Below, piece by piece: positions 2,836 through 61,798 of a stretch of DNA of 64,000 nt (position 1 is its first letter; each line of letters starts with the position of its first letter). A program made the translations under genes and the position numbers. The stretch covers positions 11,729-75,728 of the forward strand of contig JBBQFS010000001.1 of assembly GCA_038322255.1 (NCBI GenBank). Direction: 5' to 3'. The DNA is from Candidatus Limnocylindrales bacterium. GTDB taxonomy: Bacteria; Chloroflexota; Limnocylindria; Limnocylindrales; CSP1-4. A model generated the notes under the pieces. The model had not been told where the DNA came from. It worked only from the letters and a program-made list of their open reading frames with translations, and did not search any database.

Positions 2836-2842
2836 CCGGGGT

Positions 2843-6934: not shown

Positions 6935-7099
6935 GCCCGGGGAACGCTCATCATCGGAGTGGACAGTATCCCACGCTGACCCGGCGGCTCCGACGAGACA
7001 GCCGCGGGTGGGTGGGTGTCGGTCGATCCCCCTATCCTCGAACGCAACGAGGCCCGGTCCGCGGGACCGCGCCCGAATCCGCGCGCCGCCGGAGGGAAG

Positions 7100-8401: not shown

Positions 8402-8518
8402 GCCGACGCCGGGCCCCGCACCCACGCGGCTGGTCCGACGCCTTGCGGTACCATTCGGCCCCGCCAACGCGCCAGGCGTGATCGGCGCGCCCGACATCGA
8501 ACAGGACACCCGTACCGC

Positions 8519-10252
8519 ATGACGCTCCGAGCCAGACCCGTCGCACGCCGACGGGGCCGTGCCGGCTGGGATTCCGGCGACCGCCGCAACACCCTCATCA
8601 ACGCCGGCTTCTTCATCGCGATCGGCCTTGCCGTCCTCATCCTCCTCGGCTACGCGGCCTGGAGCTGGTACGACGGCCACTTCGGCGCCGCAGCCGTGGT
8701 CAACGGCCAGGTCATCACCAAGGACGACCTGCGCAACCGGCTCGCGATCGAGAACTTCCGGCTCGACTACATCGAGAGCCGCATCAAGACCCTCGAGGCC
8801 AAGGGCCGCATCTCCAGCGCCGACGCCCAGCAGCAGGTCGATTTCCTCAACCAGCGCCGCCAGCAGCTGGCGAACCTGACCCTCCAGCGGCTGGTCGACG
8901 GCACGCTGATGGCGAAGCTCGCGGCCGATGACGGCGTCGCCGTGACCGACGCGGAGGTCGATGCGCAGCTCGTTTCGGAGGCGACGACGTCGGAGCAGCG
9001 TCACGTCTGGATGATCGCGGTCGAGCCCGCGACGGACCCCGCCACCGGCCAGGTCGGGGAGGCCCAGAAGCGGGCCGCGCTCGTTCGGGCCCAGCAGGCG
9101 TTTGCCCGGCTCAAGAACGGTGAGTCCTGGGACGACGTCGCCCGGACGATGTCAACGTCGGGGCTCGCACCCCAGAGCGGCGACCTCGGCTGGCTGTCGA
9201 AGGACAGCGGCTACGACGCGGATTTCATGACCGGCGTGTTCGCGGCCGAGCTCAACGCGCCGACCACGGTCATCCAGGGCGCCGACGGGACCTACCGCAT
9301 CGGGCGGTACACCGAGGTCGCTGCCCAGGAGGTCGATGCGAACCTCCAGCCCTCGATCGTCGATATCGGCATCAAGCTCGACGACTACCGCGTCGCCGCT
9401 CGCGCCGACGTTGTCCGCAAGAAGCTCTCGGACAAGGTCGTCGCCGACATGTCGAAGCCCGGCCCGCAGCGACACGTGCTCCAGATCTACCTGCCCGAGC
9501 CCAACGCGCCGACGGTCACGACCGAGAGCGGCGTGAAGGTCCGCCACATCCTCTTCGCGCCGAACGACGACGCCACCAAGGCCGCGGACGTCCCGGCCGG
9601 CGACCCGGCATGGGCCAGGGCCAAGGCGGCTGCCGACGCGACCTACCTCGAGCTCAAGACGCATCCCGACACCTTCGACGCGCTGGCACGTGGGCTCTCG
9701 GATGAGCCGTCGGCGAAGTCGACCGGCGGAAAGCAGCCCTGGTACTACCCGTCCAGCTCGCTCGAGCAGGCCTTCAAGGACGCGATCTTTGCGCCCGGCC
9801 TGACGCCCGGCCAGCTGCTCCAGCCCGTCAAGACGGCATTCGGCTGGCACGTGATCCAGATCATGCGACCGACGGGCGACGGCGATGCCGCCTGGCTCGC
9901 GGCGATCAAGGCCAAGGTCACGGACGACGCGTCGTTCAAGCAGCTCGCGAAGGACAACAGCGAAGGACCCGAGGCGATGGCCGGCGGCGACATCGGCTGG
10001 ATCGCCCCGGGACAGCTCGCGGACAAGGTCGACGCCGCCATCTTCGGGACGGCCGTCGGCTCGCTCTCGGCGGTCGTCACCGTCGACCAGGGCGGCGTCT
10101 ACCTGATGAAGGTGCTCGCCGAGGAGACGAGGACGCCGACCGACGCGCAGCTCAAGATCTTCAAGGACAGCGGCTTCTCCTACTGGTACACCCGCCAGAA
10201 GGAGAAGGCCAAGATCGACTATCCCCTCGGGACCGCCTCGGCGACCGGCTAG
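8519..10252 (+). CDS. Membrane-anchored SurA/PrsA-like peptidyl-prolyl cis-trans isomerase (parvulin type)
   Basis: N-terminal TM anchor (LINAGFFIAIGLAVLILLGYAAW). SurA-like chaperone region. C-terminal parvulin/PpiC motifs (VRHILF..., GWHVIQIM, GGDIGWI). The weak RBS makes the start uncertain. Confidence 0.7.
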   Translation: MTLRARPVARRRGRAGWDSGDRRNTLINAGFFIAIGLAVLILLGYAAWSWYDGHFGAAAVVNGQVITKDDLRNRLAIENFRLDYIESRIKTLEAKGRISSADAQQQVDFLNQRRQQLANLTLQRLVDGTLMAKLAADDGVAVTDAEVDAQLVSEATTSEQRHVWMIAVEPATDPATGQVGEAQKRAALVRAQQAFARLKNGESWDDVARTMSTSGLAPQSGDLGWLSKDSGYDADFMTGVFAAELNAPTTVIQGADGTYRIGRYTEVAAQEVDANLQPSIVDIGIKLDDYRVAARADVVRKKLSDKVVADMSKPGPQRHVLQIYLPEPNAPTVTTESGVKVRHILFAPNDDATKAADVPAGDPAWARAKAAADATYLELKTHPDTFDALARGLSDEPSAKSTGGKQPWYYPSSSLEQAFKDAIFAPGLTPGQLLQPVKTAFGWHVIQIMRPTGDGDAAWLAAIKAKVTDDASFKQLAKDNSEGPEAMAGGDIGWIAPGQLADKVDAAIFGTAVGSLSAVVTVDQGGVYLMKVLAEETRTPTDAQLKIFKDSGFSYWYTRQKEKAKIDYPLGTASATG

Positions 10253-46829: not shown

Positions 46830-47879
46830 TCAGTCCCGGCGTGCGTTCGTGAACTCGAAGCCGAAGCGGCCCTTGATGCAGAGGTGGCCTTCGGTTACGG
46901 TCGAATCCATCGGCGAGGTGACCTTCACGATCGTGTTGTCCTGGACGTGGAGGTCGATCGCGCAGCCGACGCCGCAGTACGGGCAGATCGTCTGGGTCAT
47001 CGTCTGGGCCGACTCGTCCCACGTGCCTGCCTCGCGCATGTCGTACTCCGACTTGAACATCAGCGCACCCGTCGGACAGACGCCGATGCAATTGCCGCAG
47101 TAGACGCAGGCCGAATCGGGCAGGGGCGCGTCCCACTCCGTGGAGATTCGGGCATCAAAGCCGCGGCCCGCGACGGCGATCGCGAACGTGTTCTGGGCGT
47201 CCTCGCCACAGGCCTCGACGCACTTGTAGCAGAGGATGCACTTCGAGTAGTCACGCACGTAGAGGTTGTTATCGACCTTCACCGGCTGGGCGACGGACTC
47301 GGCCACGGACGCTTCTGGGCCGGCGGGGGCGTGGTGATGCCCGGGATCACGGTCATCGCGTTCGTGCGCGGCGGCGGAGCGAGCCGGCGGCCCGAATCTC
47401 AAAGGGTCGGCGCCGTACCGCGCCGCGTAGCGGGCCGCGTCGCCATCGGGCTCGCGAGGACCGGCGAGCGAGAGGTCGACCGACGAGCCGAGGAACTCGA
47501 GCACCACCTTCCGCGAGTGCTGGACGCGCTCGGATTCGGTCTGGATCTCCATGCCCTCCTCGACGCGGCGCGAGCACGCGGGAGCGAGCACGCGCGCCCC
47601 CTTGACCTCGACGACGCACACGCGACAGACGTTCACGGGAGTGAGATTCTCGAGGTAGCACAGGGTCGGGATGTCGAGGCCCTGGGCCCGGCAGGCGTCG
47701 AGGATGGTCGAGCCGGCGGGCACTTCGACCGCGACGCCGTCGATCGAGAGGCTGAGCCGCGCTGGGAGGGCGGCCGGCGGCGGGCCGGGGATGCGCGTCG
47801 CCCGGGCCGGCGGCGTCGTGTAGACGATGCCTGGTGGCGCCGTGTCCACCGCTCCCGGTTGCTGGGGGTCGTGGGTCAC
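46830..47879 (-). CDS. Formate dehydrogenase alpha subunit, N-terminal electron-transfer fragment (2Fe-2S ferredoxin-like, 2x[4Fe-4S] and the MopB-type CPYCGVGC cluster region), ending where the catalytic domain proper begins
   Basis: A GTG at 47879 overlaps the fdsB TGA (GTGA). Motifs: 2Fe-2S region LSIDGVAVEVPAGSTILDAC...CYLENLTPVNVCRVCVV; ferredoxin CxxCxxC (CILCYKCVEAC, CVYCGNCIGVCP); and TICPYCGVGCAIDLHV...GHLCIKGRFGFEF. Stop after ...FTNARRD. 349 aa. Confidence 0.8.
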   Translation of the reverse strand: MTHDPQQPGAVDTAPPGIVYTTPPARATRIPGPPPAALPARLSLSIDGVAVEVPAGSTILDACRAQGLDIPTLCYLENLTPVNVCRVCVVEVKGARVLAPACSRRVEEGMEIQTESERVQHSRKVVLEFLGSSVDLSLAGPREPDGDAARYAARYGADPLRFGPPARSAAAHERDDRDPGHHHAPAGPEASVAESVAQPVKVDNNLYVRDYSKCILCYKCVEACGEDAQNTFAIAVAGRGFDARISTEWDAPLPDSACVYCGNCIGVCPTGALMFKSEYDMREAGTWDESAQTMTQTICPYCGVGCAIDLHVQDNTIVKVTSPMDSTVTEGHLCIKGRFGFEFTNARRD

Positions 47880-49834
47880 AGCGCTGCCAGCTCCGGTTGG
47901 CGGATGGCCGACTCGATCGCCGACGAGGCCGTTTGCCCGAGCCCGCAGATGCTCGCGTCGCGCATCGCCCGGCCGATGTCGGCCAGGAGCACCAGTTCCT
48001 CCTCCCGGGTCCGGACCGCGACGCCGTCTGCCAGGCGCGAGAGGAGCTCCTCCTGGCGAACCGTGCCGACCCGGCAAGGCACGCACTGGCCGCACGACTC
48101 GTCGCGGAAGAACGCGGCGATCCGGCGCAGCGTACCCACGAGATCGGCGGTCTCGTCGAAGACCATCACCACGCCAGACCCCAGGGTCGCATTGATCTCG
48201 CGCGTGCCCTCGAACGTCAGTGGCGTGGCGAGCACCTCAGGCCCGACGAAGACGCCGGCCGCGCCGCCGAGCAGGATCGCGCGGATGGCGCGCCGCTCGG
48301 GCACGCCACCGCCCAGCTCGATGAGCTGGCCCAGGGTCGTCCCGAACGGGACCTCGTACACGCCTGCGCGCCCGACGTTGCCCGACAGGCAGAACAGCTT
48401 CGGCCCGGTTGAGCCCTCGCTGCCGACCTTCGCGAACCGGGCCCCGCCGCCGGGGCCGTCCTCGAGGATCGCGAGCACGTTAACGAGCGTCTCGACATTG
48501 TTGACCGCCGTCGGCTTGCCAAACAGCCCGAACTCGACGGGGAAGGGAGGCTTGTTGCGCGGCTCGCCGCGCTTACCCTCGATCGACTCGAAGAGCGCCG
48601 TCTCCTCGCCACAGATGTAGGCGCCCGCGCCGCGCCGGACCTCGATGTCGAAGGCGAGGCTCGATCCCGCGACCGAGGCGCCGAGGTAGCCGGCGGCTCG
48701 CGCCATCTCGATGGCGCCACCGATGCGCGATTCAGCGAGCGGATATTCGCCACGGATGTAGAGGTAGCCCTTGGACGCGCCCGTGGCGAAGCCCTCGATC
48801 GTCATGGCCTCGACAACCGCGAACGGGTCGAGCTCCATGAGCACGCGATCCTTGAACGTGCCCGGCTCCGACTCGTCGGCGTTGCACACGACGTAGTGGG
48901 GCTGCGCAGGCTGGGCGGCGACCGCGGCCCACTTGCGCCCAGTTGGGAAGGCCGCGCCGCCGCGGCCGAGGAGCCGGCTGTCGGTGACCTCGCCAAGCAC
49001 GGCATCGGCGCCCATTGCCAGCGCCTGCTCGAGGGCGCGGTAGCCGCGATGGGCGACGTAGTCGTCGAGCGAGCTGGGATCGGCCAGGCCGACGCGGCGG
49101 AGCAGCAGGAGCTGCGGCTGGCCGGTCTGGGGCACCGAGGCGTGCGCAGCGTCCCGGAAATCCGGTGCGGGCGGTGCGTGGCCATTGGTTTTGGCAGCCG
49201 CGGACCCTGTCCACTGGGCATTCGCGGCCGACGGGGCGTTCGCCGCCGAGGGGGCCGCGACCGCGCGCTCGAGCCGAGCGATCACGCCCGCGGCATCGAT
49301 CGGCGCGGCGGTCTCCCGGGTCGGCTGCTCGCCGGCGATCGTGAACATCGCGGCCGGCGCGAGCTCGCACAGCCCTAGGCACGGGCTGCGCAGCCAGCCG
49401 ATTCGGCCGTCGCCCGAGGGGGCTCCGGCGGGCCCGAGCGTCCGGCCCAGGTCGGCGCACAGCTCCTCGGCCCCGGCAAGACGGCAGGCGATGTCATCGC
49501 AGACGTGGGCGATGGCCGGCGGCCGCGGCTTCGTGGTGAAGAGGGCGTAGAACGTGGCGACACCATAGGCCTCGGCGGGCGGTACCGACAGGCGCCGGCA
49601 CACGTAGTTCAGGCCCGGCTGCGTGATCTGGCCGACCCGATCCTGCAGCGCGTGCAGCGCCGGCAGGAGGAGGTCGCGCCGGCTCCGGGCTTCGTGCCCG
49701 CCTCTCGCGACGTGCCCCTCGGTCATCGAGTCGCGCCCGCCGCCGCGCCAGCCGCTGTCGGCCGGCCCGAGCACCGCATCGACCGCCGCGCGCTCCCCGG
49801 GGGAAGCCAGCGGCCCGATGACGTGAAGGTCCAT
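47876..49834 (-). CDS. NAD-dependent formate dehydrogenase beta subunit: fused NuoE-like (2Fe-2S thioredoxin-like) and NuoF-like (FMN, NAD, 4Fe-4S) domains
   Basis: N-terminal NuoE/FdsG-like region (LLPALHALQDRVGQI...EAYGVATFYALF...RSPCLGLCELAPAAMF). NuoF motifs (GAGAYICGEETALFESIEGKRGEPRNKPPFP, CGQCVPCRVGT). Confidence 0.85.
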   Translation of the reverse strand: MDLHVIGPLASPGERAAVDAVLGPADSGWRGGGRDSMTEGHVARGGHEARSRRDLLLPALHALQDRVGQITQPGLNYVCRRLSVPPAEAYGVATFYALFTTKPRPPAIAHVCDDIACRLAGAEELCADLGRTLGPAGAPSGDGRIGWLRSPCLGLCELAPAAMFTIAGEQPTRETAAPIDAAGVIARLERAVAAPSAANAPSAANAQWTGSAAAKTNGHAPPAPDFRDAAHASVPQTGQPQLLLLRRVGLADPSSLDDYVAHRGYRALEQALAMGADAVLGEVTDSRLLGRGGAAFPTGRKWAAVAAQPAQPHYVVCNADESEPGTFKDRVLMELDPFAVVEAMTIEGFATGASKGYLYIRGEYPLAESRIGGAIEMARAAGYLGASVAGSSLAFDIEVRRGAGAYICGEETALFESIEGKRGEPRNKPPFPVEFGLFGKPTAVNNVETLVNVLAILEDGPGGGARFAKVGSEGSTGPKLFCLSGNVGRAGVYEVPFGTTLGQLIELGGGVPERRAIRAILLGGAAGVFVGPEVLATPLTFEGTREINATLGSGVVMVFDETADLVGTLRRIAAFFRDESCGQCVPCRVGTVRQEELLSRLADGVAVRTREEELVLLADIGRAMRDASICGLGQTASSAIESAIRQPELAAL

Positions 49835-50478: not shown

Positions 50479-50799
50479 TCAGCCGCCTGGCGCCTGGTAG
50501 CTGGGGTGCATGGAACGAGCCTTGTCGACCTCGTCCGCCGTCAGGAGGACCGTCGTCACGATGTGGGCCGCGCCGGTTGTCGCGACAGTCGTGGACAGCG
50601 CCGCCGCCGCAGCGTTGTCGGGCAGCTCGACGATGAGGATGACGTCGTACTTCCCGAACGACCAGTACATCGCCTCGAGCTTCCCGCCGAGGCTGCTGGC
50701 GGAGGCCTCGAGGGCCTTGATCCGGGTTGCCGCGCCGTCCTTCATCACCCCGGCGAGGCCCGCCTGGGTGTAGTTCGCCGAGAACAGGAAATGGGCCAT
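50479..50799 (-). CDS. GYD domain-containing protein
   Basis: GAGGTG RBS, then ATG. MAHFLFSANYTQAGLAGVMKDGAATRIKALEASASSLGGKLEAMYWSFGKYDVILIVELPD is a typical GYD-family sequence. Confidence 0.75.
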   Translation of the reverse strand: MAHFLFSANYTQAGLAGVMKDGAATRIKALEASASSLGGKLEAMYWSFGKYDVILIVELPDNAAAAALSTTVATTGAAHIVTTVLLTADEVDKARSMHPSYQAPGG

Positions 50800-50858: not shown

Positions 50859-52784
50859 TCAGGCCGGAATCGGCGCCGGGAGCTTCTCGACGCGGATCGC
50901 CGTCGCCTTGAACTCGGCCGTGCCTGACTTCGGGTCGGTAGCGTCGATCGTCAGGACGTTCGTGGCGACCTCATCCTGGAAGTGCAGGGTCATGAAGGTC
51001 AGGCCGGGACGCAGGCTGTGATCGATCCGGACCGGCGCCTCGATCGAGCCGCGACGCGAGGTTATCCGGACGCGCTCGCCGTCGATCAGCGAGAACCGCG
51101 CGGCGTCCTCGGGCGAGATGTCCAGCGACTCGCCGCGCCGCAGGGGCGACGTGTAGCCGCTCGACTGGACGCCGGTGTTGTACGAGTCGAGCCGCCGGCC
51201 GGTCGTGAGCCGGATCGGAAAGTCGTCGTCGAGCTTGTCGACCGGCGGGTCGTGGTCGACCGCGACGAACGGCGCCCGCAGCCCCGGCACCGGGTCCTCC
51301 CAGAGGCGCGAGTGCAGGAACAGCTCGCCCGGATGGGTCTCGTCCCAGCACGGCCACTGGATTCCGCCGAGCGACTCGAGCCGGGCGTAGGTCATGCCGC
51401 GATGGACGGGCGACAGCGACCGCAGCTCGTCCCAGGTCCTCTCGGCCGAGGCTTCGCCCCAGTCGCTGCCCATCCGCCGGGCAAGCTCGTAGATGATCCA
51501 GAGGTCCTCGCGTGCCTCGCCCGGTGGGTTCATCGCCCTGCGGACGCGCTGGACGCGGCGCTCCGAGTTCGTGACCGTCCCCTCGGATTCGGCCCACGCC
51601 GCGGCGGCCGGCAGCACCACGTCGGCGATCTGGGCCGTCGCGGTCAGCAGCAGGTCCTGCACGACGAGGAAATCGAGGCCGCCGAGGAGCCGCTTGGCCC
51701 GCTGCTGGTCGGCCTCGGACTGGACGGGATTCTCGCCGATGACGTAGACGGCGCGGAGCTCGCCCTCCTCCATGGCGTCGAACATCTGGGAGAGGTGCCA
51801 GCCGCGCCGCGCCGGGACCGTGACGCCCCAGGCTTCGTCGAACTTCGATCGGAGGGCCTCGTTCTCGACGTACTGGAAGCCAGGGAGTCGGTCGGGGAGG
51901 GCGCCCATGTCGCCGCCTCCCTGGACGTTGTTCTGGCCCCGGAGCGGGTTGAGGCCGCTGCCGTACTTCCCGACATGCCCGCAGAGCAGCGCGAGGTTGA
52001 TCAGCGCCAGCACGTTGTCGACCGCGTTGTGGTGTTCGGTGATGCCGAGCGTCCAGCAGATCATCGCCTTGTCGGCGGTCGCGAAGGCGTGGGCCAGCTC
52101 CTGGATCGCGGAGGCGGGCACGCCCGTCTCGCGCTCCGCGTACTCGAGCGTGTACGACTCGACCTTGGCCCGGTAGGCCTCGAAATCTGACGTCGCGCGC
52201 TCGATGAACTCGGTGTTCGCCAGGCCGGCGTGGATGATCTCGCGCCCGATGGCGTTCGCGAGGGCGATGTCAGACCCGACGTCGAGCCCCAGCCAGACGT
52301 CGGCCCACTCGGCCGAGCTCGTCCGGCGCGGGTCGACCGCGTAGAGCCGGGCGCCGTTGCGGACGCCGCGCAGGAGGTGGTGGAAGAAGATCGGATGCGT
52401 CTCCCGGGCGTTGCTGCCCCAGAGCACGATCAGGTCCGTCTCTTCAGCCTCGCGATATGAGCTGGTTCCGCCACCAGCGCCGAACACGGTCGCCAGACCG
52501 GCGACAGATGGCGCGTGTCAGGTGCGGTTGCAGCTGTCGATGTTGTTGCTGCCCAGGACCTGCCGGGAGAGCTTCTGGGCCGCGAAGTTGACCTCGTTGG
52601 TCGCCTTCGAACAGCTGAAGATCCCAATCGGGGTTCGCGCGTCCGCGGTGGCCTTGGCGGCCAGCGCGGCGCGGAATCCGGCGACGGTCCGGTCGAGCGC
52701 CTCGTCCCAGGTGGCCGGGCGGAGCTCGCCGCCCTTCGTGTCGCGCACGAGGGGCTGGGTCAGGCGAACGTACGACTTCGGCAA
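50859..52784 (-). CDS. Formate dehydrogenase alpha subunit, molybdopterin (Mo-bisPGD) catalytic fragment, selenocysteine-containing (in-frame TGA at 52518-52520)
   Basis: GGAGGA RBS 4 nt before the TTG at 52784 (MPKSYVRLTQPLVRDTKGGELRPATWDEALD...). Continues ...LGSNNIDSCNRT-TGA-HAPSVAGLATVFGAGGG..., matching the FdhF/FdsA Sec/Cys active-site context (…NN.D.CAR.U.HGPSVAGL). The downstream 540 aa are a full MopB domain plus the molybdopterin-binding C-domain. 641 codons if TGA is decoded. Confidence 0.8.
52489..52505 (-). other. Putative bacterial SECIS hairpin (GUCGCC-GGUCU-GGCGAC) 12 nt 3' of the in-frame UGA
   Basis: On the mRNA: UGA-CACGCGCCAUCU-GUCGCCGGUCUGGCGAC. A 6-bp stem with a GGUCU apical loop, similar in position and loop sequence to the E. 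coli fdhF SECIS apical stem-loop. Confidence 0.55.
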
Positions 52785-52988
52785 GGGTCCTCCGTGCCTT
52801 CTCGTGGCCGTCGATCGGCCGCGTTCGTCGCCGGCTGCTGCCGGTCCGGCCAGTGTAGCGAGGCACCCGCCGAGTGCCGGGTGCCAGCTCGGGCCGTCTC
52901 GGCGGAGAGGCCCCGGCCCGTCCGGCCCGCCCGGTTGGTTGTGGCCAGTTCGGACCGGCTCGGACGTCCGTGGCGATTTTTCCGCCAC

Positions 52989-53753
52989 CTAGGTCCGCCT
53001 GGGGCCACCGACGCGCCGCGCGACGATGTTGAGGCGGACGTAGTCGAGCTTCGCCTCGGGCATGCGCGCGGCGACCGCCTGCACGAAGGGCTTCCGCTCT
53101 CCGGGTGGCAGCTCGGCGAGGAAGGTCCGAAGGCAGACCGTCTCGAGGAACGACTCGAAGGGCTCGCCGGGATCGAAGTGCGTCGGCTCGTCGGAGAGCC
53201 AGGTCTCGATCTCGACGAAGCCGCTCCTCTCGAGCCGCGCCCGCGTGGCCTCGGGCGTCTCGAAGCGGTGCTCCCGGTGGAAGCCTGGATGGACCTCGAG
53301 GGCGGTGTCGAGCAGCGCGGCGACGTTGCCGGCGCCGCCGCACTGGGCCACGAGCCAGCCGCCGGGACGCAGGACGGCGGCGAGATTCGCAAAGAGCGCG
53401 TCGTGATCGAGGACCCAGTGGAAGGTCGCCGTCGACAGGATCGCGTCGACGTTGGCGGCGAGCGGGAGCCGTAGCGGGCGGGCGAGGTCCGCCTCGACGT
53501 AGTCCACCTGCTCGCCGAATCTCGCCAGCCGTCCACGCGCCTCCGCGAGCATCGACGCCGACGCGTCGAGCGCGACCACGCGCCCGTGCGGCAACCGCCC
53601 GAGCAGCATCTCGGTGACGCGTCCCGTGCCGCACCCTGCGTCGAGGACCGTCTCGTCGCCGTCGAGCGGCAACCGATCGAGGACCGCCGCGCCCCAGCGC
53701 GCCTGCGGGTCGGCGACCCGATCGTACGCTCTCGCATTCCAGTCGCCGGTCAT
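52989..53753 (-). CDS. Class I SAM-dependent methyltransferase (trans-aconitate methyltransferase Tam-like)
   Basis: MTGDWNARAYDRVADPQARWGAAVLDRLPLDGDETVLDAGCGTGRVTEML parallels the Tam N-terminus (DWN..Y, V.D.GCG.G). Confidence 0.8.
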   Translation of the reverse strand: MTGDWNARAYDRVADPQARWGAAVLDRLPLDGDETVLDAGCGTGRVTEMLLGRLPHGRVVALDASASMLAEARGRLARFGEQVDYVEADLARPLRLPLAANVDAILSTATFHWVLDHDALFANLAAVLRPGGWLVAQCGGAGNVAALLDTALEVHPGFHREHRFETPEATRARLERSGFVEIETWLSDEPTHFDPGEPFESFLETVCLRTFLAELPPGERKPFVQAVAARMPEAKLDYVRLNIVARRVGGPRRT

Positions 53754-53760
53754 GGCACGA

Positions 53761-54288
53761 CTATGGCATCACCCAGCGCGCCGGTGGCACCTCGACCGCG
53801 AGGACGGTTGCGTTCCACGGCGGTGGCGTCGATCCCGGGATGTCGAGGTCGGTCGGCAAGTCGAGCCCGAGCACGACGACGGCAACCTTCTCGGAACCCG
53901 AGAAGCTGACCCAGGCGTGCATGAACTGGCCAGGTCGCACGACGGGGCCGTAGCACGGCGGCATCGATCCGCCACCCGGCCAGAACACCGCGCAGAAGAA
54001 GGGCCCCGGCTCGATGGCGATCCGGTCGATCGGCAGCCGGACCGGGGCGATCGCGAGCTCGACGGCCATCGTCGCCGAGGGACATGGGTCGCCGGAAAGG
54101 GTCGATGGCAACGGCAGCGGCTCGATGCGGCAGGCGACCAGTCGGGTCGAATGCAACGGACCCGCGGGGGTTGCGTCGGAAGCCGGCCGACCGAATCCCA
54201 GGGCGACCGCAAGGGCGACGGCCAGCGGAACCGTGATCCCGGCAAGCAGCACGGCGATGCCGAGCCACCCACCGCGCCGAGAGGTCAC
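53761..54288 (-). CDS. Hypothetical membrane-anchored protein (175 aa)
   Basis: A GTG at 54288 overlaps the selD TGA stop (GTGA). N-terminal TM (GGWLGIAVLLAGITVPLAVALAVALGF). No family recognised. Lies 8 nt upstream of the methyltransferase start. Confidence 0.45.
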   Translation of the reverse strand: MTSRRGGWLGIAVLLAGITVPLAVALAVALGFGRPASDATPAGPLHSTRLVACRIEPLPLPSTLSGDPCPSATMAVELAIAPVRLPIDRIAIEPGPFFCAVFWPGGGSMPPCYGPVVRPGQFMHAWVSFSGSEKVAVVVLGLDLPTDLDIPGSTPPPWNATVLAVEVPPARWVMP

Positions 54289-55391
54289 GCGAGGGCGACG
54301 GCCGCGAGTGTCGCGGCTTCGACGCGGCCGATCGTCCAGCTGGACACGCCTGCAGCACGTAGCGCGCTTTCGACCGCTGGCGCCCCGCGCGCGGGAATGG
54401 CGGCGAGGAGACCGCCCGAGGTTTGCGGGTCGTGGGCGAGGGTGACGACTTCTCCCGAGACGTCGCCGCCAACGGTCAGGGCCGGCGCGACGAACCGGCG
54501 GTTGTTGGCGGCCCCGCCGGTCTCCACGCAGTCACGCGCGAGGTCGAGGGCGCCATCCAGCGCCGGGAGCGCCGACGCGTCGAACACGAACTTCGTTCCT
54601 GAGGCTCGAGCCATCTCGAGGCCGTGGCCCAGGAGGCCGAAGCCGGTGACGTCGGTCGCCCCGCGGATGCCGTGCGCGACGAGCACCTCCGCTGCCGCGC
54701 GGTTCAACGCGCGCATGGAGTCGACGGCCGCCGCGAGCTCGTCGTCGCTCGTCCGACCCTGCCGGCGCCCGCTCACGAGCAGCCCGGTCCCGAGCGGCTT
54801 CGTGAGCATCAGGAGGTCGCCCGGCCGCGCGCCTCCCTTGCGCAGCAGGTGATCGGGCGAGGCAACCCCGACAACGGCCAGGCCGTATTTCGGCTCCTTG
54901 TCCCGGATCGTATGGCCGCCTGCGAGAAGCCCCCCGGCTTCGCGGACCTTCGATGCCGCGCCGTCGAGGATCGCCCGGAACGCGTAGCTCGGCATGTCCT
55001 CCGGGATCGCGGCGACCGAGAGCGCGAACAGGACCCGGCCGCCCATCGCGAAGACGTCCGACAGGGCATTCGCCGCCGCGATCTCGCCGAAGGTGCGAGG
55101 GTCGTCGACGATCGGGGGGAAGAAGTCGAGCGTCCCGATGACGGCGACGCCGGGCGCAACCAGGTGGACGGCGGCGTCGTCCGGCGGGTCGAGCCCGGCG
55201 ATGAGGCCGGTCGAGCCCTCGGTCGCCGACCGGTGGTCGTGACCGTAAACCGCGTCAACGTCGTCGATGCCGAGCCCGGCGAGCGCCTCGGCCAGAGCGT
55301 CAGCCCCGAGCTTCGCCGCACAGCCGCCGCACGTCGTCAGCTCCGTCAAACGGATGGGCGGGAACGTCAGCTCGGGAAGCTGGGACGGCAT
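54285..55391 (-). CDS. selD: Selenide, water dikinase (selenophosphate synthetase)
   Basis: ATG at 55391. IRLTELTTCGGCAAKLG (Cys form), DDAAV..., GTLDFFPPIVDDPRTFGEIAAANALSDVFAMGG, GGHTIRDKEPKYGLAVVGV and TDVTGFGLLGH align with E. coli SelD. The 5' part of the track ORF (to 56084) is rejected. Confidence 0.9.
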   Translation of the reverse strand: MPSQLPELTFPPIRLTELTTCGGCAAKLGADALAEALAGLGIDDVDAVYGHDHRSATEGSTGLIAGLDPPDDAAVHLVAPGVAVIGTLDFFPPIVDDPRTFGEIAAANALSDVFAMGGRVLFALSVAAIPEDMPSYAFRAILDGAASKVREAGGLLAGGHTIRDKEPKYGLAVVGVASPDHLLRKGGARPGDLLMLTKPLGTGLLVSGRRQGRTSDDELAAAVDSMRALNRAAAEVLVAHGIRGATDVTGFGLLGHGLEMARASGTKFVFDASALPALDGALDLARDCVETGGAANNRRFVAPALTVGGDVSGEVVTLAHDPQTSGGLLAAIPARGAPAVESALRAAGVSSWTIGRVEAATLAAVALA

Positions 55392-55490
55392 GTGGGCGAT
55401 GGTAGGACGCAGCCCATTGACCGTCGGCGCGGTGGCCGCGACGATGCCGCGAACCCGCACTTCTGACGCGGGCCCTTGGGAGGGCAGGCG

Positions 55491-56507
55491 ATGACCGACC
55501 TCGCGACCGAGCGCGACCTTGTGACGGTCCCGAAAGTGGAGCTGCACATCCACCTGAACGGCTCGATCACCGAGGCGACGGCGTCCGAGCTGGCGCGCCG
55601 CCACGGTGCCGATCCAGCGGAAACCCTGATCCTGCGCGACGGCCGCTACCCCGGCAGCTACCCGGACTTCAAGGCGTTCCTCGACGTCTACATGGCCGCG
55701 AACGCCTTCGTTCGGACGCCGGAGGACCTGGAGTTCGTCGCGGCCGAGTTTGCCGAGGGGCAGGCCGCCCAGAACATCGTCTACTCCGAGGCGATCTTCA
55801 CGGCGATGATCTATGCCCGGAACGGGATGGATCCGACGGCGATGTGGGCCGCGCTCCAACGGGGCCTCGCAGCTGCCGGGCCTAACACGCGCATTGGACT
55901 GGTGGTCGATGCGATCCGCGACTTTGGCCGGGCTGAAGGGGACGCCACGCTCAAACTCGTCGAGGGCGCTGACGCCCCGATCGTCGGTCTCGGCCTGACC
56001 GGAATCGAGGGCACGGTTCCGGTCGAGGAGTTCCTTTCTTTCCGGGCCGCTGCGCGACGGCTCGGGCTCGGTTTCGAGGTCCACGCCGGCGAGATGGGCC
56101 CGCCTGAAAGCATCGTCGAGTCACTCGATGTGCTGGAGGCGGATCGGATCGGCCACGGCGTCGCGGCCATCGGCGACTCGGCACTCCTGGAGCGACTGGT
56201 GCGCGACCAGGTCGTGCTCGACGTCTGCCCATCATCGAACATCGGGGTGGGTCTCTTCCCGTCGCTCGACGCACACCCAGTGGCGGAATTTTGGAAGGCC
56301 GGCGTGAACATGACGATCTCCAGCGACGACCCGCCGTTCATGAGAACGACCCTGACTGATGAGCTCCGCCACGTCGTCCGACTGGCCAGGCTATCGCGGA
56401 ACGACCTCGCTGAGCTCCAGCGGAGAGGCGCACGTGCGGCGTTTGCCAGTGATGCGACGCAGGGCGAGCTGCTGGCGCTGATCGACGAGTGGGCGGGCGG
56501 CACTTGA
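55491..56507 (+). CDS. add: Adenosine deaminase
   Basis: GGGAGGG RBS, then ATG at 55491. Metal-binding motifs (VELHIHLNGS, EVHAGE, SSDDP). Confidence 0.85.
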   Translation: MTDLATERDLVTVPKVELHIHLNGSITEATASELARRHGADPAETLILRDGRYPGSYPDFKAFLDVYMAANAFVRTPEDLEFVAAEFAEGQAAQNIVYSEAIFTAMIYARNGMDPTAMWAALQRGLAAAGPNTRIGLVVDAIRDFGRAEGDATLKLVEGADAPIVGLGLTGIEGTVPVEEFLSFRAAARRLGLGFEVHAGEMGPPESIVESLDVLEADRIGHGVAAIGDSALLERLVRDQVVLDVCPSSNIGVGLFPSLDAHPVAEFWKAGVNMTISSDDPPFMRTTLTDELRHVVRLARLSRNDLAELQRRGARAAFASDATQGELLALIDEWAGGT

Positions 56508-57253
56508 CGAGCGAGGTGTCGCTGGCAGCCCGGAGGCGGGTGCGGATCACCGACACGGTCCTGGGCGGCGGCGATGCCGCGGTCGAGGCCTACGTCGTCG
56601 AACGGCCCGACGAGCCCGTCGTGGCCGGGATCCTCTTCCTGCACTGGCTCGGCGACCACCGCAGCGACCGGACGCAGTTCCTTTCGGAGGCCCGCGAGCT
56701 CGCCACGTTGGGCGTTCGAAGCGTCCTGCCCGCCGGTCGACTGCCCTGGGTGCCGGAACCGGTGAACGCTGCCACCGATATCGCCAACATCGAGGCCGAG
56801 CAACGGCGGCTCGGAGCCGCGCTCGAGGCACTCACAAGTGGGCTGCCCAAGGGCGCGCCGATCGGCCTGGTTGGCCACGACTTCGGCGCGATGCACGGCC
56901 TGCTCCTGGCCGCGCGCCAGCCGCGGTTCAGGGCCGCCGTCCTCATCGGGGCTACGCCGCGCTGGGGCGACTGGTTCCTGCGGTTCTGGCAGGTCGACGG
57001 CGACCGGTTCGACTACCTCCGCAGGCTTTCCCCAGTCGACCCGATCGAGGCGGCGCGTGACCTCAAGGCCACAGTGCTCTGGCAGTTCAGCGAGCGTGAC
57101 TTCTTCATCGCCCCGATGTCCGCGGTCGAGCTGGCGAAGGCCGCGCCGGGTGAGCCGGTGATCGAGTGGTATCCGGCCGATCACGCGATGCGGAGCCCGA
57201 AGGCGCGCCGGTCGAGGATCGCGTTCCTCCGTCGGGAGCTGCACCTTCGCTGA
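56504..57253 (+). CDS. Alpha/beta-hydrolase fold protein (dienelactone hydrolase-like)
   Basis: A TTG at 56504 overlaps the add stop (TTGA); alternatively GTG at 56489. Nucleophile elbow GLVGHDFGA. Weak family assignment. Confidence 0.5.
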   Translation: MTSEVSLAARRRVRITDTVLGGGDAAVEAYVVERPDEPVVAGILFLHWLGDHRSDRTQFLSEARELATLGVRSVLPAGRLPWVPEPVNAATDIANIEAEQRRLGAALEALTSGLPKGAPIGLVGHDFGAMHGLLLAARQPRFRAAVLIGATPRWGDWFLRFWQVDGDRFDYLRRLSPVDPIEAARDLKATVLWQFSERDFFIAPMSAVELAKAAPGEPVIEWYPADHAMRSPKARRSRIAFLRRELHLR

Positions 57254-57324
57254 CAGCGCGCAGCGTCGTCACGCGGCCGGAGGCCGACGGACACTCCGGC
57301 GCGAGACCTTCACTACGATGTTCC

Positions 57325-57421
57325 GGGAGCGGAGGGGTCCCGGTGGGCTTCCTCGTCTTCAAAACGAGTGGCGCGGCGCTCGGCGTCGCGCGGTGGGTTC
57401 GACTCCCATGCGCTCCCGCCA
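57325..57421 (+). tRNA. selC: tRNA-Sec (selC), anticodon TCA
   Basis: 97 nt. The acceptor stem GGGAGCG(G)/(G)CGCTCCC has 7 bp plus a G-G at position 8. D-region CCCGGTGGGC. Anticodon loop CTTCAAA with TCA at 57359-57361. Long variable arm. T-arm GGTGGGTTCGACTCCCAT is identical in loop to E. coli selC. Discriminator G and CCA are encoded. Sits immediately upstream of selA. Confidence 0.8.
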
Positions 57422-57470: not shown

Positions 57471-58922
57471 ATGACGAGAGAACGGCGGCCCCCCAGCGTC
57501 GACGCGATCCTGCGTGCCGCGGCGCCGGGCCTCGACGGGCGCGACCACGAGGCGGTCGTCCTCGTGGCACGCGAGGTCGTGGCGGGGGAGCGGGCGCGGC
57601 TCGCGGGCGGCGGCCCTGGGGCGGCCGCGGCGAAGCTCGCCGACGAGCTGCGCGAACGCCTCGAGGCGCTCGAGGGGGGAAGCGATGAGGCAGGCGCGCG
57701 GGCCGCCGGCTCCGGGCTTCAGCCCGTCATCAACGCGACCGGCGTGATCCTGCACACGAACCTCGGGCGCGCGCCGTGGCCCGACGCGGCGATCAAGGCA
57801 GGCCAACTGGCCGCGAGCGGTCCCTCGATGCTCGAGCTCGATGCCGACTCGGGGCGCCGGGGCCGGCGCTTCCGGGCGGTCGAGGATGAAGTCGTCGCAT
57901 TGACCGGCGCCGACGACGCGCTGGTCACCAACAACAATGCCGCCGCGGTTGCGCTTGCGGTCGGGCTCGCGGGGCGCGGCGGCGTTGCGGTCTCGCGTGG
58001 TGAGCTCGTCGAGATCGGTGGCGGCGTCCGGATTCCGGAGATCGTGCGCCGCGCGGGCGCCCGCCTCCTCGAGGTGGGCACGACGAATCGCACCCGCGTC
58101 GCCGACTTCGAAACGGCCCTCGTCGAAGGCCGCGCGAAGCTCGTCTTGCGCGTCCATCCCTCGAACTTCACCCAAACCGGGTTCGTGGAATCGCCGGACG
58201 ACGCGGAGCTCGCGGCGGTGGCCCACCGTCACGGGGCCCTGGTGGTCGACGACCTCGGGTCGGGCGCCCTACTCGACACGGCGCGATTCGGTCTCGCCCA
58301 CGAGCCGATGCCGCGCGAGCGCCTCGAAGCGGGTGCTGACCTCGTGACATTTTCCGGCGACAAGCTCGTCGGTGGGCCTCAGGCCGGGATCATCGCTGGC
58401 CGCGCCGATCTCGTGGAACGGCTGCGGCGCGACCCCCTGGCCCGCGCGATGCGCCCGGACAAGGTCGTCCTCGCGGCGCTGGCTGCGACGCTCAGGCTGT
58501 ACCGAGCCGGGGTCGCGCACACCGCCATCCCGATCTGGCGCCAGATTGCGGCACCACTCGACGGGCTCGAACGACGCGCGACCGACGTCCTCGCGGCGCT
58601 CACCGGCGGCGCGTCCCTGCTCAACGCCGACGCCTCGCCCGGGACCCGCGGCGTCACGCTCGGCGTCGAGCCGACCGAGTCGACCATCGGCGGCGGCTCG
58701 CTGCCCGGGCAGACGCTCGCGTCCTGGGCAGTCGTCATCGTCGGTCCGCCGCCGCAGCGCCTGCTCGCCGCGCTTCGGGACGGGCACCCGCCGGTGATCG
58801 GCCGGGTGGTCGACGACGCGGTCGTGCTCGACTTTCGAACGGTAGAGCCACGCGACGACAAGCGATTCGCCGACGCCGTTCGGGCAGCGATTCTGTCGAC
58901 CTCACCGCCCCTGCGGGGTTGA
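57471..58922 (+). CDS. selA: L-seryl-tRNA(Sec) selenium transferase
   Basis: ATG at 57471 (MTRERRPPSVDAILRAA...). PLP-lysine region FSGDKLVGGPQAGIIAG. INATGVILHTNLGRAPW. Confidence 0.9.
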   Translation: MTRERRPPSVDAILRAAAPGLDGRDHEAVVLVAREVVAGERARLAGGGPGAAAAKLADELRERLEALEGGSDEAGARAAGSGLQPVINATGVILHTNLGRAPWPDAAIKAGQLAASGPSMLELDADSGRRGRRFRAVEDEVVALTGADDALVTNNNAAAVALAVGLAGRGGVAVSRGELVEIGGGVRIPEIVRRAGARLLEVGTTNRTRVADFETALVEGRAKLVLRVHPSNFTQTGFVESPDDAELAAVAHRHGALVVDDLGSGALLDTARFGLAHEPMPRERLEAGADLVTFSGDKLVGGPQAGIIAGRADLVERLRRDPLARAMRPDKVVLAALAATLRLYRAGVAHTAIPIWRQIAAPLDGLERRATDVLAALTGGASLLNADASPGTRGVTLGVEPTESTIGGGSLPGQTLASWAVVIVGPPPQRLLAALRDGHPPVIGRVVDDAVVLDFRTVEPRDDKRFADAVRAAILSTSPPLRG

Positions 58923-58929
58923 CACCAGC

Positions 58930-59145
58930 ATGGACGCGACCACGGCGTTCGGCGTCGCGGCCCTCAGCTTCATGATGCTGATGTATGCGCTGGAACGGCG
59001 CGGGCGCGTCTTCGTCCTCGCATTCGCAGCGGGGTGCGCCCTCTCGAGCGCCTACGGATTCGCGTCTGGCGCCTGGCCGTTCGGCGTTGTTGAAGCCATC
59101 TGGACGGTCATCGCGCTCCGTCGCTACGCCACGGACCCGAGCTGA
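58930..59145 (+). CDS. Hypothetical small membrane protein (71 aa, 2 predicted TM helices)
   Basis: ORF between selA and selB. Its TGA overlaps the selB ATG (TGATG). No RBS upstream. No family recognised. Confidence 0.35.
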   Translation: MDATTAFGVAALSFMMLMYALERRGRVFVLAFAAGCALSSAYGFASGAWPFGVVEAIWTVIALRRYATDPS

Positions 59146-61076
59146 TGCATGACCCCAACGTCGGGCCGACCGTCGTCATCGGCACCGCCGGCCACATCGA
59201 CCACGGCAAGACGAGCCTCCTGCGCGCGTTGACCGGCATCGACGCCGACCGGCTGCCCGAGGAGCAGGCCCGGGGCATGACGATCGACGTCGGATACGCC
59301 CATCTCACGTTCGGCGATGGCGTCGAGCTCGACTTCGTCGACGTGCCGGGGCATGACCGCCTGATCGGCAACATGCTCGTCGGAGCGGGCGAGGTCGACG
59401 CGGCGATGGTCGTCGTCGCCGCCGACGATGGGCCTCGGCCGCAGACGCTGGAGCACCTGCAATTGCTCGACGCGCTCGGCATCGACGAGGGTCTCGCGGT
59501 GGTGACGAAGGTCGATGCGGTCGACCCGACGAGAGTCACGGAGGTCGTGAGCGCCGTGACCGCGCTCCTCGCCGTGACATCGCTCCGTGGTTCTCCCGTT
59601 CTCCCGGCATCGTCGGTGACAGGAGAGGGGATCGAGGCGGTTCGAACGGCGCTTCGATCTGTGCGTGACGGGGTTGCTGCGCGATGGTCGGCGGTTGGGC
59701 TGCCACCTCACGGCGCGGGCCCGCTCCGGCTCGCAGTCGACCGCGCCTTCGCGGTCAAGGGTCGGGGCGCGGTTGTCACAGGGAGCCTTCGCGGCGGCGC
59801 GCTGGAATCCGGAGCGACGCTCCGGCGCGAGCCAGGCGGTGAATCGATCCGCATTCGCGAGGTCCAAGTGCACAGCCATGCGCGGGATCGTCACGACGGC
59901 GGCCGGACGGCGCTCAACGTGGTGGGGCTGCCGGTCGAGTCCCTACGGCGTGGCGACGTGCTGACGAGCGGACCCGGTGTGCTCGGGAGCGATCGGATCC
60001 TCGTCGAGCTTCGGCCGCCAGCCCGCGTTGGGCCAGCGACGGCTCGTCCACCGAAGGTCGGCGCTCGACTCCGACTGCACGTCGGCACCGATAAGGCCGA
60101 GGCGACGCTCCGGCTGGTTCGCGCGCGCCCGAGTGCGGCGATCCTGACCCTGGAGCGACCAGTTGCGACATTCGTGGGCGATCGAGCAATCCTTCGGGAG
60201 CCAGCGTCGGGGGACGTCGTCGCCGGCGTTCGCGTCCTCGACCCGCGACCGCCTCGGGGCCCTTCGCGACGTCGCTTGACCGCTGCACGCCTTCAGGTCC
60301 TGTCGGCGGCGGTCGAAACGGGCGACGTCAGCGCGACTTGGTCGGCTCGCGTCGAGTTGCACGGGGCCATCGCGCTGGCGTCATCGCTTGACGGCGGAGG
60401 TCGAGGGCCGACGGCGCCGAATCTGGCGCTCGCGGCCGACGTGCGAACCGCGCTTGAGGAGGCCGCCCTCGAGGCCGTGACCGCGCAGCATCGCGAGGCG
60501 CCACTTCGTCCGGGTCTGGCACTCCCGCGCGCGCGCGCCGCGCTCCTCCGGCGGCTCCGCTCCCTCGCGACCATCGAGCGCCGCGACGCCGAGGCTGCGG
60601 GATCGGCCGTTGCCGGCGTGCTCGACCACCTCGTCGAGCAGGGCTTGCTTGTCCGGCAGGGCGAGGCGCTGCGCGATCCGTCCCGCGGCTCAGAGCTGCC
60701 GCCGGACCTGGTCGCCGCGATGGATCGGCTCGAATCAGCCCTCGCGATCGCCGCGCCGCCGCCGCTCGAAGCCGCGGCGCTCGAGGCTGGCTGCCCAACC
60801 GAGGGCATTCGCGCGCTCCAGGCCGCCGGGCGCATTGTTCGACTCGGGCCGGATCTCGCCTGGGCGACGCCGACGTTCCACCGCCTCGCGGCCGTCGCCC
60901 TCGACCGATCGCGCCAGGCGCCGCTCACGCCCGCGGCCTACCGGGACGCGACCGGGACCAGCCGGCGCTACGTGCTCGCCATCCTCGAGGACCTGGATCG
61001 GCGCGGAATCCTGCAGCGAACCCCCGAGGGCCACATTCCCGGCCCTCGGGCTCCGCGGGCGGAGCCGGTCGCGTGA
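59145..61076 (+). CDS. selB: Selenocysteine-specific translation elongation factor
   Basis: G-domain motifs (IGTAGHIDHGKTSL, DVPGH, TKVD). Long C-terminal winged-helix region. 643 aa. Confidence 0.9.
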   Translation: MHDPNVGPTVVIGTAGHIDHGKTSLLRALTGIDADRLPEEQARGMTIDVGYAHLTFGDGVELDFVDVPGHDRLIGNMLVGAGEVDAAMVVVAADDGPRPQTLEHLQLLDALGIDEGLAVVTKVDAVDPTRVTEVVSAVTALLAVTSLRGSPVLPASSVTGEGIEAVRTALRSVRDGVAARWSAVGLPPHGAGPLRLAVDRAFAVKGRGAVVTGSLRGGALESGATLRREPGGESIRIREVQVHSHARDRHDGGRTALNVVGLPVESLRRGDVLTSGPGVLGSDRILVELRPPARVGPATARPPKVGARLRLHVGTDKAEATLRLVRARPSAAILTLERPVATFVGDRAILREPASGDVVAGVRVLDPRPPRGPSRRRLTAARLQVLSAAVETGDVSATWSARVELHGAIALASSLDGGGRGPTAPNLALAADVRTALEEAALEAVTAQHREAPLRPGLALPRARAALLRRLRSLATIERRDAEAAGSAVAGVLDHLVEQGLLVRQGEALRDPSRGSELPPDLVAAMDRLESALAIAAPPPLEAAALEAGCPTEGIRALQAAGRIVRLGPDLAWATPTFHRLAAVALDRSRQAPLTPAAYRDATGTSRRYVLAILEDLDRRGILQRTPEGHIPGPRAPRAEPVA

Positions 61077-61798
61077 ACCGACGGCCCGACCGACGGCCCG
61101 ATGGATCGCCGGATCCTCCAAGCGTGTCGGCCCCGCTCCGGCAGGCCGTCACGGCGATCGTGCTGGCAGGCGGTCGTTCGTCGCGGTTCGGCGGCCCGAA
61201 GCTCGTCGTCGAGCTTGACGGCGCGACCCTCCTCGACCGCGCCGTGCGCGCGGTCCAATCCGTCGCCACGTTTGTCATCGTCGCTGGTCCGGAGCCCGCG
61301 GCGCGGTTGGGTTCGTCCACCCCGCGACGTCGCCTTGGCGCTGCTGGCGACGCCCCGGCTTCGTCCGTCCGGTTCGTCGACGACGACCAGCCATTTGCCG
61401 GCCCGCTCGCGGCGCTCGCCGGCGCGCTCCGCGAGACCTCGACCGAGCTCGCCATCATCGTCGGTGGCGACATGCCGGGCCTCGTGCCCGCCGTGCTCGC
61501 CGCGATGCTGGACAACCTCGCGTCGGACCTCACTGTCGATGCGGTCCACCTCGCCGGCGTGACAGAGCCCCCGCATCGGGAGGTCCTCCCGCTCGGGCTC
61601 CGAGTCGCACCGGCCGCGAAGGCCGCCGTCGCGCGCCTGGGAAACGGCGATCGCTCGCTCGTGCGCCTCCTTGACCGCCTTCGGACCGTCGAGATTCCGG
61701 CCACCGAATGGTTGGCTCTCGACCCGGCCGGCCGGACCCTCCTGGACGTCGACGAGCCGAGAGATCTGGAGCGTTGGGACGCAGGCGAGATTCGCTGA
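61073..61798 (+). CDS. mobA: Molybdenum cofactor guanylyltransferase
   Basis: A GTG overlaps the selB TGA (GTGA). N-terminus TAIVLAGGRSSRFGGPKLVVELDG is the MobA NTP-transferase signature. Confidence 0.8.
   Translation: MNRRPDRRPDGSPDPPSVSAPLRQAVTAIVLAGGRSSRFGGPKLVVELDGATLLDRAVRAVQSVATFVIVAGPEPAARLGSSTPRRRLGAAGDAPASSVRFVDDDQPFAGPLAALAGALRETSTELAIIVGGDMPGLVPAVLAAMLDNLASDLTVDAVHLAGVTEPPHREVLPLGLRVAPAAKAAVARLGNGDRSLVRLLDRLRTVEIPATEWLALDPAGRTLLDVDEPRDLERWDAGEIR

Follow-up and report, generated by a model that had tools for sequence, protein, structure and literature searches.

A predicted extracytoplasmic protein family and a generic methyltransferase carried between selD and a selenocysteine-containing formate dehydrogenase gene in a Limnocylindrales genome

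Selenocysteine/formate dehydrogenase (Sec/FDH) islands, with selA, selB, selC and selD grouped together with fdhA, occur in bacteria that apparently have FDH as their main or sole selenoprotein. The neighbourhood of selD has also been the source of predictions of further selenium-related genes, namely YedE, YedF, DUF3343, LysR_Se, YqeB/YqeC and SelU (PMC9312934, PMC2432076). Here we describe a stretch of 64,000 nucleotides (the window) from Candidatus Limnocylindrales bacterium (assembly GCA_038322255.1, contig JBBQFS010000001.1, positions 11,729 to 75,728 of the forward strand), in which two genes lie between selD and the gene for a Sec-containing FDH, one for a 175-aa protein (p175) and one for a methyltransferase (MT) dependent on S-adenosylmethionine (SAM). 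An earlier note on this DNA had proposed that the two might serve a new selenium-handling function. What is new here is the narrow p175 family, which is carried together with a generic methyltransferase in an ordinary Sec/FDH island. The reading to which we give moderate confidence is that p175 and MT have long resided in an indel-prone spacer and that their link to selD is inherited local synteny.

The locus shows the same overall grouping as the described islands, with tRNA-Sec, selA, selB, selD, a UGA-containing FDH gene with its hairpin and a mobA-like gene all within ~15 kb. It differs from them in its split FDH alpha subunit, whose Fe-S N-terminal part has a gene of its own after a NuoEF-like gene, and in the embedded lineage-specific genes, which code for p175, MT, an alpha/beta hydrolase and a membrane protein of 71 aa. 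We document below how this island is laid out in the lineage, with the split alpha subunit and with a conserved putative promoter and leader ahead of FDH. The YedE-, YedF-, DUF3343-, LysR_Se-, YqeB/YqeC- and SelU-type predictions were made from the neighbourhood of selD and hence from the same type of evidence as is available for p175 and MT; however, those predictions draw on co-occurrence over many phyla, whereas the association of p175 and MT with selD is seen in one lineage only. Neither p175 nor MT matched any of these families in Pfam or NCBIfam, MT matching methyltransferase families only, and a literature search found no Tam-like methyltransferase linked to selD.

The selD gene (54285..55391, minus strand) encodes a selenide, water dikinase with AIRS and AIRS_C domains and a Cys-type active site, in which the Cys/Sec-x-x-Lys motif appears as TTCGGCAAK; it scores 318 bits against TIGR00476 (equivalog cutoff 125). 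On the minus strand it ends with GCC CTC GCG TGA, the stop codon being at 54287-54285, and p175 (53761..54288, minus strand), whose GTG start codon is at 54288-54286, shares four nucleotides (GTGA) with it, an overlap that can be read directly from the DNA, as the earlier note had done. The TAG stop codon of p175 occupies 53763-53761 and the ATG of the 254-aa MT (52989..53753, minus strand) is at 53753; MT thus lies close behind p175 as had been noted, with a spacer of 7 nt rather than 8 nt, and terminates with a TAG at 52991-52989. In this genome of ~70% GC, the GC content at third codon positions (GC3) distinguishes coding from non-coding frames well; it amounts to 0.88 in selD, 0.85 in p175 and 0.92 in MT, the other frames over p175 ranging from 0.64 to 0.70. 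A spurious open reading frame (ORF) at p175 was ruled out by its GC3 and its conserved homologues, and selD, p175 and MT are three real genes. Their packing, with a 4-nt overlap and a 7-nt spacer, is tight enough that it would allow translational coupling in this genome, in agreement with the earlier suggestion. A scan of the region for promoter and terminator consensus sequences, which is uninformative in 70% GC DNA, gave nothing, and the only Rfam match in the region, a weak one to COG3860 RNA inside selD (55182-55232, E 0.17), does not rise above chance.

For comparison, 51 loci were collected via p175 (genome and metagenome contigs), via MT orthologues and via distant p175 homologues, and 23 query proteins were mapped onto them; the presence counts below are out of 20 selD-to-FDH intervals that are complete. 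One island is common to the close relatives (selD 76-82% and NuoEF ~80% identical), with tRNA-Sec, selA, the 71-aa membrane protein, selB (and mobA) and the alpha/beta hydrolase on one side, and selD, FDH(Sec), the NuoEF-like gene and then a separate Fe-S subunit on the other. The order selD, p175, MT, FDH recurs across ~50 Limnocylindria-type loci. Regarding the content of the interval, MT was found in 19 of the 20 and p175 in 16, together with an opposite-strand Zn-ribbon membrane protein (~13/20), a PNPOx-like protein (~9/20), a lipoprotein of 178 aa (6/20), a 352-aa protein (5/20) and Peptidase_S51 (4/20), and further with DJC28_CD, SnoaL, cupin and guanylate cyclase genes and a ~9-kb insertion that carries a putative recombinase. 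The interval is a mosaic that draws, in varying sets, on roughly ten unrelated gene families. Its minimal version is that of the window, and p175 and MT therefore abut selD.

At the p175-MT junction, an overlap of 4 nt is present in 11 loci, a spacer of 7 nt in 8 loci and the window, and a distance of 27-37 nt in 2 loci; in another 10 loci the two genes are parted by the opposite-strand Zn-ribbon membrane gene. Three loci (L001, L010 and L012) have p175 without MT, and four (L044, L045, L050 and L051) have MT without p175. Between selD and p175, the genes overlap or are at most ~25 nt apart in ~17 loci and 70-650 nt apart in 6; other genes intervene in 5, and in 5 more no selD is found within 1-4 kb upstream. 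Close packing beside selD can come from compaction of a mosaic interval, and compaction of the variable spacer in this genome may have produced the apparent coupling of p175 and MT to selD.

Several components of the interval deserve a separate description. In L002 (~840-9400), the ~9-kb insertion directly follows selD and parts it from p175; one ORF of the insertion, 468 aa long, resembles a serine recombinase, by eye only. This insertion shows that the interval is an insertion hotspot. The family of ~178-aa lipoproteins, which yielded no Pfam or NCBIfam match, often precedes p175 (L041, 6897-7433; L044, 7478-7996; also L002, L003, L004, L007, L011, L020, L025 and L040). In L044, which lacks p175, this lipoprotein is encoded directly upstream of MT; that it might be a p175 homologue was rejected, as hhalign shows no homology. 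The 352-aa protein, likewise without a Pfam or NCBIfam match, follows MT in L041 (8750-9808), L002 (11299-12360), L004, L008, L031, L043 and L050; its gene, which is absent from the window, overlaps the MT stop codon by 4 nt with its start in L041.

The earlier note had tied its proposal to the conservation of the 175-aa ORF in relatives, and the ORF is indeed conserved: a search of 5.8 billion proteins yielded 108 homologues of 47-77% identity. Almost all of them come from soil and groundwater metagenomes, and the few named sources are metagenome-assembled genomes of Limnocylindria, 'Chloroflexi' and 'Dormibacteraeota'. A full hidden Markov model scan of 1.84 billion cluster representatives returned only 81 proteins (representatives at 50% identity), and the family as sampled by these searches is small and lineage-restricted. 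In the alignments, a variable N-terminus (a basic stretch, then a hydrophobic helix, then a Pro/Ser/Thr-rich linker) precedes a conserved alpha/beta domain of ~125 residues (50-175), which carries the motif PGQFMHAW, the C-terminal motif VPPxGWxxP and four cysteines, C53, C69, C99 and C112, that are invariant across the aligned homologues.

The p175 of the window begins with MTSRRGG, followed by a hydrophobic helix at residues 10-31 (about 22 residues; transmembrane helix at about 9-32) without a lipobox Cys; an L-A-G/A-C lipobox ends the hydrophobic region in many relatives. The arginine pair and the helix lacking a lipobox Cys point to a signal-anchor, and because either a signal-anchor (window) or a lipobox (relatives) would place the domain outside the cytoplasmic membrane, it is predicted to be extracytoplasmic. 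The positive-inside N-terminal anchor and the lipobox Cys of the relatives are those of secreted or lipoprotein envelope proteins. AlphaFold2, run with 91 sequences, gave a predicted local distance difference test (pLDDT) score above 90 for residues 50-175, which are modelled as one helix packed against a five-stranded sheet. Foldseek found no match for the model in the PDB (best E 0.27, TM-score at most 0.24), neither Pfam nor NCBIfam matched p175 or any of 91 family members, and Pfam offered no hint for the multi-domain relatives of p175 either. The description of p175 as a membrane-anchored protein of no recognisable family is therefore borne out by the helix and lipobox signals and by the searches, and the structure prediction that had been called for yielded a confident domain without a match in the PDB. 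The four invariant cysteines are probably structural disulfides, in two pairs, this being the simpler reading of four invariant cysteines in a secreted domain. In sum of these properties, p175 represents a small, unannotated family of four-Cys, putatively extracytoplasmic proteins whose confidently modelled fold matches none in the PDB.

Divergent members of the family retain the four cysteines and the C-terminal motif, most of them with a lipobox; the M-H-W motif is not retained in them, Q-F-M-H-A-W being conserved in the close clade. The genomic context of distant homologues could be read in three lineages, and selD, MT and FDH were all not nearby. The neighbours in L046 and L047 are DUF4232, glutaredoxin-like, DsbD_TM and thioredoxin-like genes; the copy in L048 is surrounded by regulators and that in L049 lies beside an amino-acid ABC transporter. 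The gene-neighbourhood comparison proposed in the earlier note thus gave a negative answer for the distant homologues, and the link between p175 and selD is limited to the orthologous clade. As an observation in its own right, the DsbD_TM (CcdA-like) and thioredoxin-like surroundings in L046 (8001-12848) and L047 (440-4438) may indicate an extracytoplasmic thiol-disulfide context for the p175 family.

MT is a cytoplasmic small-molecule SAM methyltransferase of a generic superfamily. Its domain scores are above the gathering thresholds (Methyltransf_25, 7e-21; PF13649, 75 bits vs 27; PF08241, 72.5 vs 21.2), and it has the SAM-binding motif LDAGCGTG at residues 37-44, as expected of a class I enzyme. 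This motif is invariant in 36 orthologues of 73-92% identity, which have 97 invariant positions in common. The superfamily search returned more than 7900 matches, the best 120 of which are all at least 73% identical, and a tblastn search against plasmids found distant homologues only (at most 33% identity over the full length). The orthologues are labelled 'trans-aconitate 2-methyltransferase' by JGI pipelines. Among known structures, MT is closest to the uncharacterised Anabaena protein 3CCF (2.6e-15 by sequence, 3e-16 in Foldseek) and to Agrobacterium Tam, 2P35 (1.8e-10 by sequence, 1.4e-14 in Foldseek, TM-score 0.65-0.70), followed by juvenile-hormone acid methyltransferase (JHAMT) and then by many small-molecule O-, N-, C- and S-methyltransferases; RebM, GtmA and JHAMT nearly equal 3CCF and 2P35 as fold matches. 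Like Tam (E. coli; 2P35) and 3CCF, to which it is similar in length, MT begins with a helix that opens with D-W-N...Y, continues with a Rossmann SAM domain containing GCGTG and closes with a C-terminal helical lid finishing in a beta strand; it differs from them in that the identity is just ~24-28% (28% to E. coli Tam).

The scores against curated models remain well below the Tam equivalog cutoffs (PRK01683, 84.2 bits vs 297; PRK14103, 76.9 vs 320), the alignment to the Tam models is limited to the N-terminal ~135 residues, and no curated NCBIfam equivalog cutoff is reached. Because the BioC model scores the same as the Tam models, a substrate cannot be transferred to MT. The label Tam-like, used in the earlier note, holds for the fold, which is Tam/JHAMT-like, and is a fair description of the predicted architecture; at the level of the Tam equivalog it fails. 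The known methyltransferases of Se, Te and As (TPMT/Tpm, UbiE-type MmtA, ArsM and TehB) are, like MT, class I SAM enzymes, so that their chemistry would be feasible; however, MT scores below family level against ArsM (PRK11873, 31 bits vs 263) and MenG/UbiE (TIGR01934, 35 vs 158), and TPMT is absent from its Pfam matches at E ≤ 0.01.

The gene for the catalytic subunit of the Sec-containing FDH (50859..52784, minus strand) was identified by TIGR01591 (556 bits, C-terminal part) and by Molybdopterin and Molydop_binding domains. It starts with TTG at 52784 and has its in-frame TGA (Sec) codon at 52520-52518, which is retained in 19 of 19 relatives. A start at the GTG at 52988, which would abut the MT stop codon, was rejected: GC3 is flat over 52800-52950, and the relatives all begin at the codon preceding PKSYVRLT, a TTG or GTG with GGAGG upstream. 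Both observations lead to the TTG at 52784 and to a spacer of ~200 nt, so that the FDH gene follows MT on the same strand, as had been stated, at a greater distance than direct adjacency would imply. This non-coding spacer (52785..52988, minus strand) contains a TACACT at 52857-52852, leader hairpins and GGAGG. In the alignment of 19 FDH upstream regions, a conserved GTACACT stands ~67 nt 5' of the start codon and is followed by short G+C hairpins and then by the GGAGG Shine-Dalgarno sequence. These elements are kept irrespective of the gene upstream, be it MT or the 352-aa, Zn-ribbon, guanylate cyclase or PNPOx gene; Rfam matched no family and no known riboswitch to the spacer. The upstream element looks like a -10 element with a leader that is possibly lineage-specific. 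FDH is therefore probably transcribed separately, which would leave selD-p175-MT as a likely transcription unit in this genome.

Immediately after the UGA codon of FDH, there is a hairpin (52470-52520, minus strand) whose apical stem is GUCGCC/GGCGAC and whose loop reads GGUCU; it is consistent with a bacterial selenocysteine insertion sequence, its energy being unexceptional for the GC content (z = -0.9). The alpha subunit of FDH is divided between two genes, and its catalytic polypeptide lacks the N-terminal 2Fe-2S, 4Fe-4S and Molybdop_Fe4S4 domains. An N-terminally truncated pseudogene was ruled out, as the start is the same in all relatives and the Fe-S part is encoded separately, by a gene (~46836-47879, minus strand) located after the NuoE/F-like fusion; the same split is found in all relatives.

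Taken together, we favour a scheme in which selD, p175 and MT would share a transcript that starts at the selD promoter and would be coupled in translation; the signal-anchor (or the lipobox in relatives) would place the compact alpha/beta domain of p175, probably with two disulfides, outside the membrane, and MT would act in the cytoplasm as a Tam/JHAMT-type methyltransferase on a small molecule. The link of both genes to selD is most likely inherited synteny rather than a dedicated selenium pathway. A different view, that MT is directed at selenium, is co-expressed with SelD and methylates excess selenide or a selenol, so as to serve as a detoxification or volatilisation valve that spares the cell while SelD uses the selenide pool, p175 being optional, appears unlikely to us, albeit less so than the other alternatives. 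It draws on several observations that weigh against inherited synteny. MT is kept in 19 of the 20 intervals despite many rearrangements, which could reflect selection for co-location; in L051 it sits directly between selD and FDH with nothing else in the interval, and in the window it is packed close downstream of selD. All five contexts sampled via MT are flanked by selD and a TGA-containing FDH gene, as are all loci found via p175, and among these no MT orthologue was found in a selD-less genome, as the selenium proposal would have it. The relatives compared include none without selD and none with a Cys-FDH, and hence no control of either kind. The thiol S-methyltransferases GtmA and TmtA are among the fold neighbours, so that methylation of a chalcogen by MT is chemically possible. 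On the other side, the close orthologues, which are always near selD, belong to a single shallow lineage in which every member has a UGA-FDH, and this synteny is the sole evidence; many unrelated genes occupy the same interval, an opposite-strand gene uncouples MT from selD and p175 in 10 loci, and the lineage of L001, L010 and L012 has selD and Sec-FDH without MT. The cutoffs of the ArsM and UbiE-type models are missed, TPMT does not match, and the published selD-neighbour predictions name YedE, YedF, DUF3343 and LysR_Se and no Tam-like methyltransferase (PMC9312934). Neither the alpha/beta hydrolase, encoded in the stretch from selD to tRNA-Sec/selA, nor the 71-aa membrane protein has a known selenium role; both occur in most related loci and are as persistent as MT, so that persistence is weak evidence of function at this depth. 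A selenium role for MT thus keeps a low probability: near-universal retention, constant proximity to selD and the thiol S-methyltransferase fold neighbours speak for it, and uncoupling in many loci, absence from one Sec-FDH lineage, the lack of a match to known Se, Te or As methyltransferase families and absence from the published predictions weaken it. If MT did act on selenium, it would represent a new enzyme family in bacterial selenium homeostasis in an abundant uncultured lineage of soil Chloroflexota.

For p175, a role as an extracytoplasmic component that binds or takes up selenium (or another chalcogen or metal) and feeds the Sec pathway is highly improbable. Its start is within ~25 nt of the selD stop codon in ~17 loci, its predicted topology faces outward, and the close clade combines the four invariant cysteines with Q-F-M-H-A-W, all of which would suit such a component; however, p175 is missing from 4 of the 20 complete islands that retain selD, selA, selB and Sec-FDH, other genes or the ~9-kb insertion separate it from selD in several loci, distant homologues hold the four cysteines in contexts without selD and without the M-H-W motif, it has no associated transporter gene, and structural disulfides explain the cysteines more simply. 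A selenium role for p175 is unlikely, since the protein is outward-facing, dispensable and unlinked to selD in distant homologues. The more ambitious combination, in which MT, as a selenium-specific methyltransferase not recognised before, would buffer the selenide that feeds SelD and p175 would be the first member of a new family of extracytoplasmic folds with a related role in the envelope, strikes us as rather improbable. There is very little probability that MT, alone or with p175, serves FDH (maturation, cofactor or regulation) rather than selenium metabolism. The FDH start does follow MT at 59-70 nt in L024, L029 and L051 and at ~200 nt in the window, but the 352-aa, Zn-ribbon membrane, guanylate cyclase and PNPOx genes usually part the two, FDH is preceded by a conserved promoter-like element of its own, and L001 and L012 keep FDH without MT. 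To our knowledge, no methyltransferase is required for the maturation of FDHs with the molybdenum or tungsten bis-pyranopterin guanine dinucleotide cofactor, which also counts against a service to FDH. Inherited synteny accordingly remains the favoured reading. The new selenium-handling function of the earlier note has no support beyond the synteny of a single shallow lineage, in which selD is 76-82% identical, and it is not refuted either; its premise that the genes around selD are unusual is a weak one, as tRNA-Sec, selA and selB are found within ~2 kb on the far side of selD from p175.

On that side of the island, an adenosine deaminase gene (55476..56507, plus strand; PF00962, 3e-66) is divergent from selD. 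It is followed by the alpha/beta hydrolase gene (56489..57253, plus strand; Pfam and locus mapping), which is located beside selD in most related loci. The longest ORFs of the two share 19 nt (56489-56507), and the start of the hydrolase is uncertain, as its relatives align from residues 13-18 onward. The tRNA-Sec gene (57323..57421, plus strand), with the anticodon TCA, was detected by ARAGORN and by RF01852 (69 bits). It precedes selA (57471..58922, plus strand; ORF and tblastn to the SelA genes of relatives), the conserved gene for the 71-aa membrane protein between selA and selB (58930..59145, plus strand; ORF, related loci) and selB (59145..61076, plus strand; ORF, with relatives that have GTP_EFTU and WHD_3rd_SelB domains). 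Downstream of FDH, on the minus strand, are genes for a GYD-domain protein (50479..50799; PF08734, 1e-23), for the NuoE/NuoF-like fusion that represents the FDH diaphorase subunit (47876..49834; 2Fe-2S_thioredx, Complex1_51K and NADH_4Fe-4S) and for the Fe-S subunit with Fer2_4, Fer4 and Molybdop_Fe4S4 (46836..47879), the latter assigned by tblastn to an L041 gene with these Pfam matches. At the other end of the island, a MobA-like gene (61073-61798, plus strand), identified by the motif LAGGRSSRFGG only, overlaps the selB stop codon and ties Mo-cofactor guanylylation to the island.

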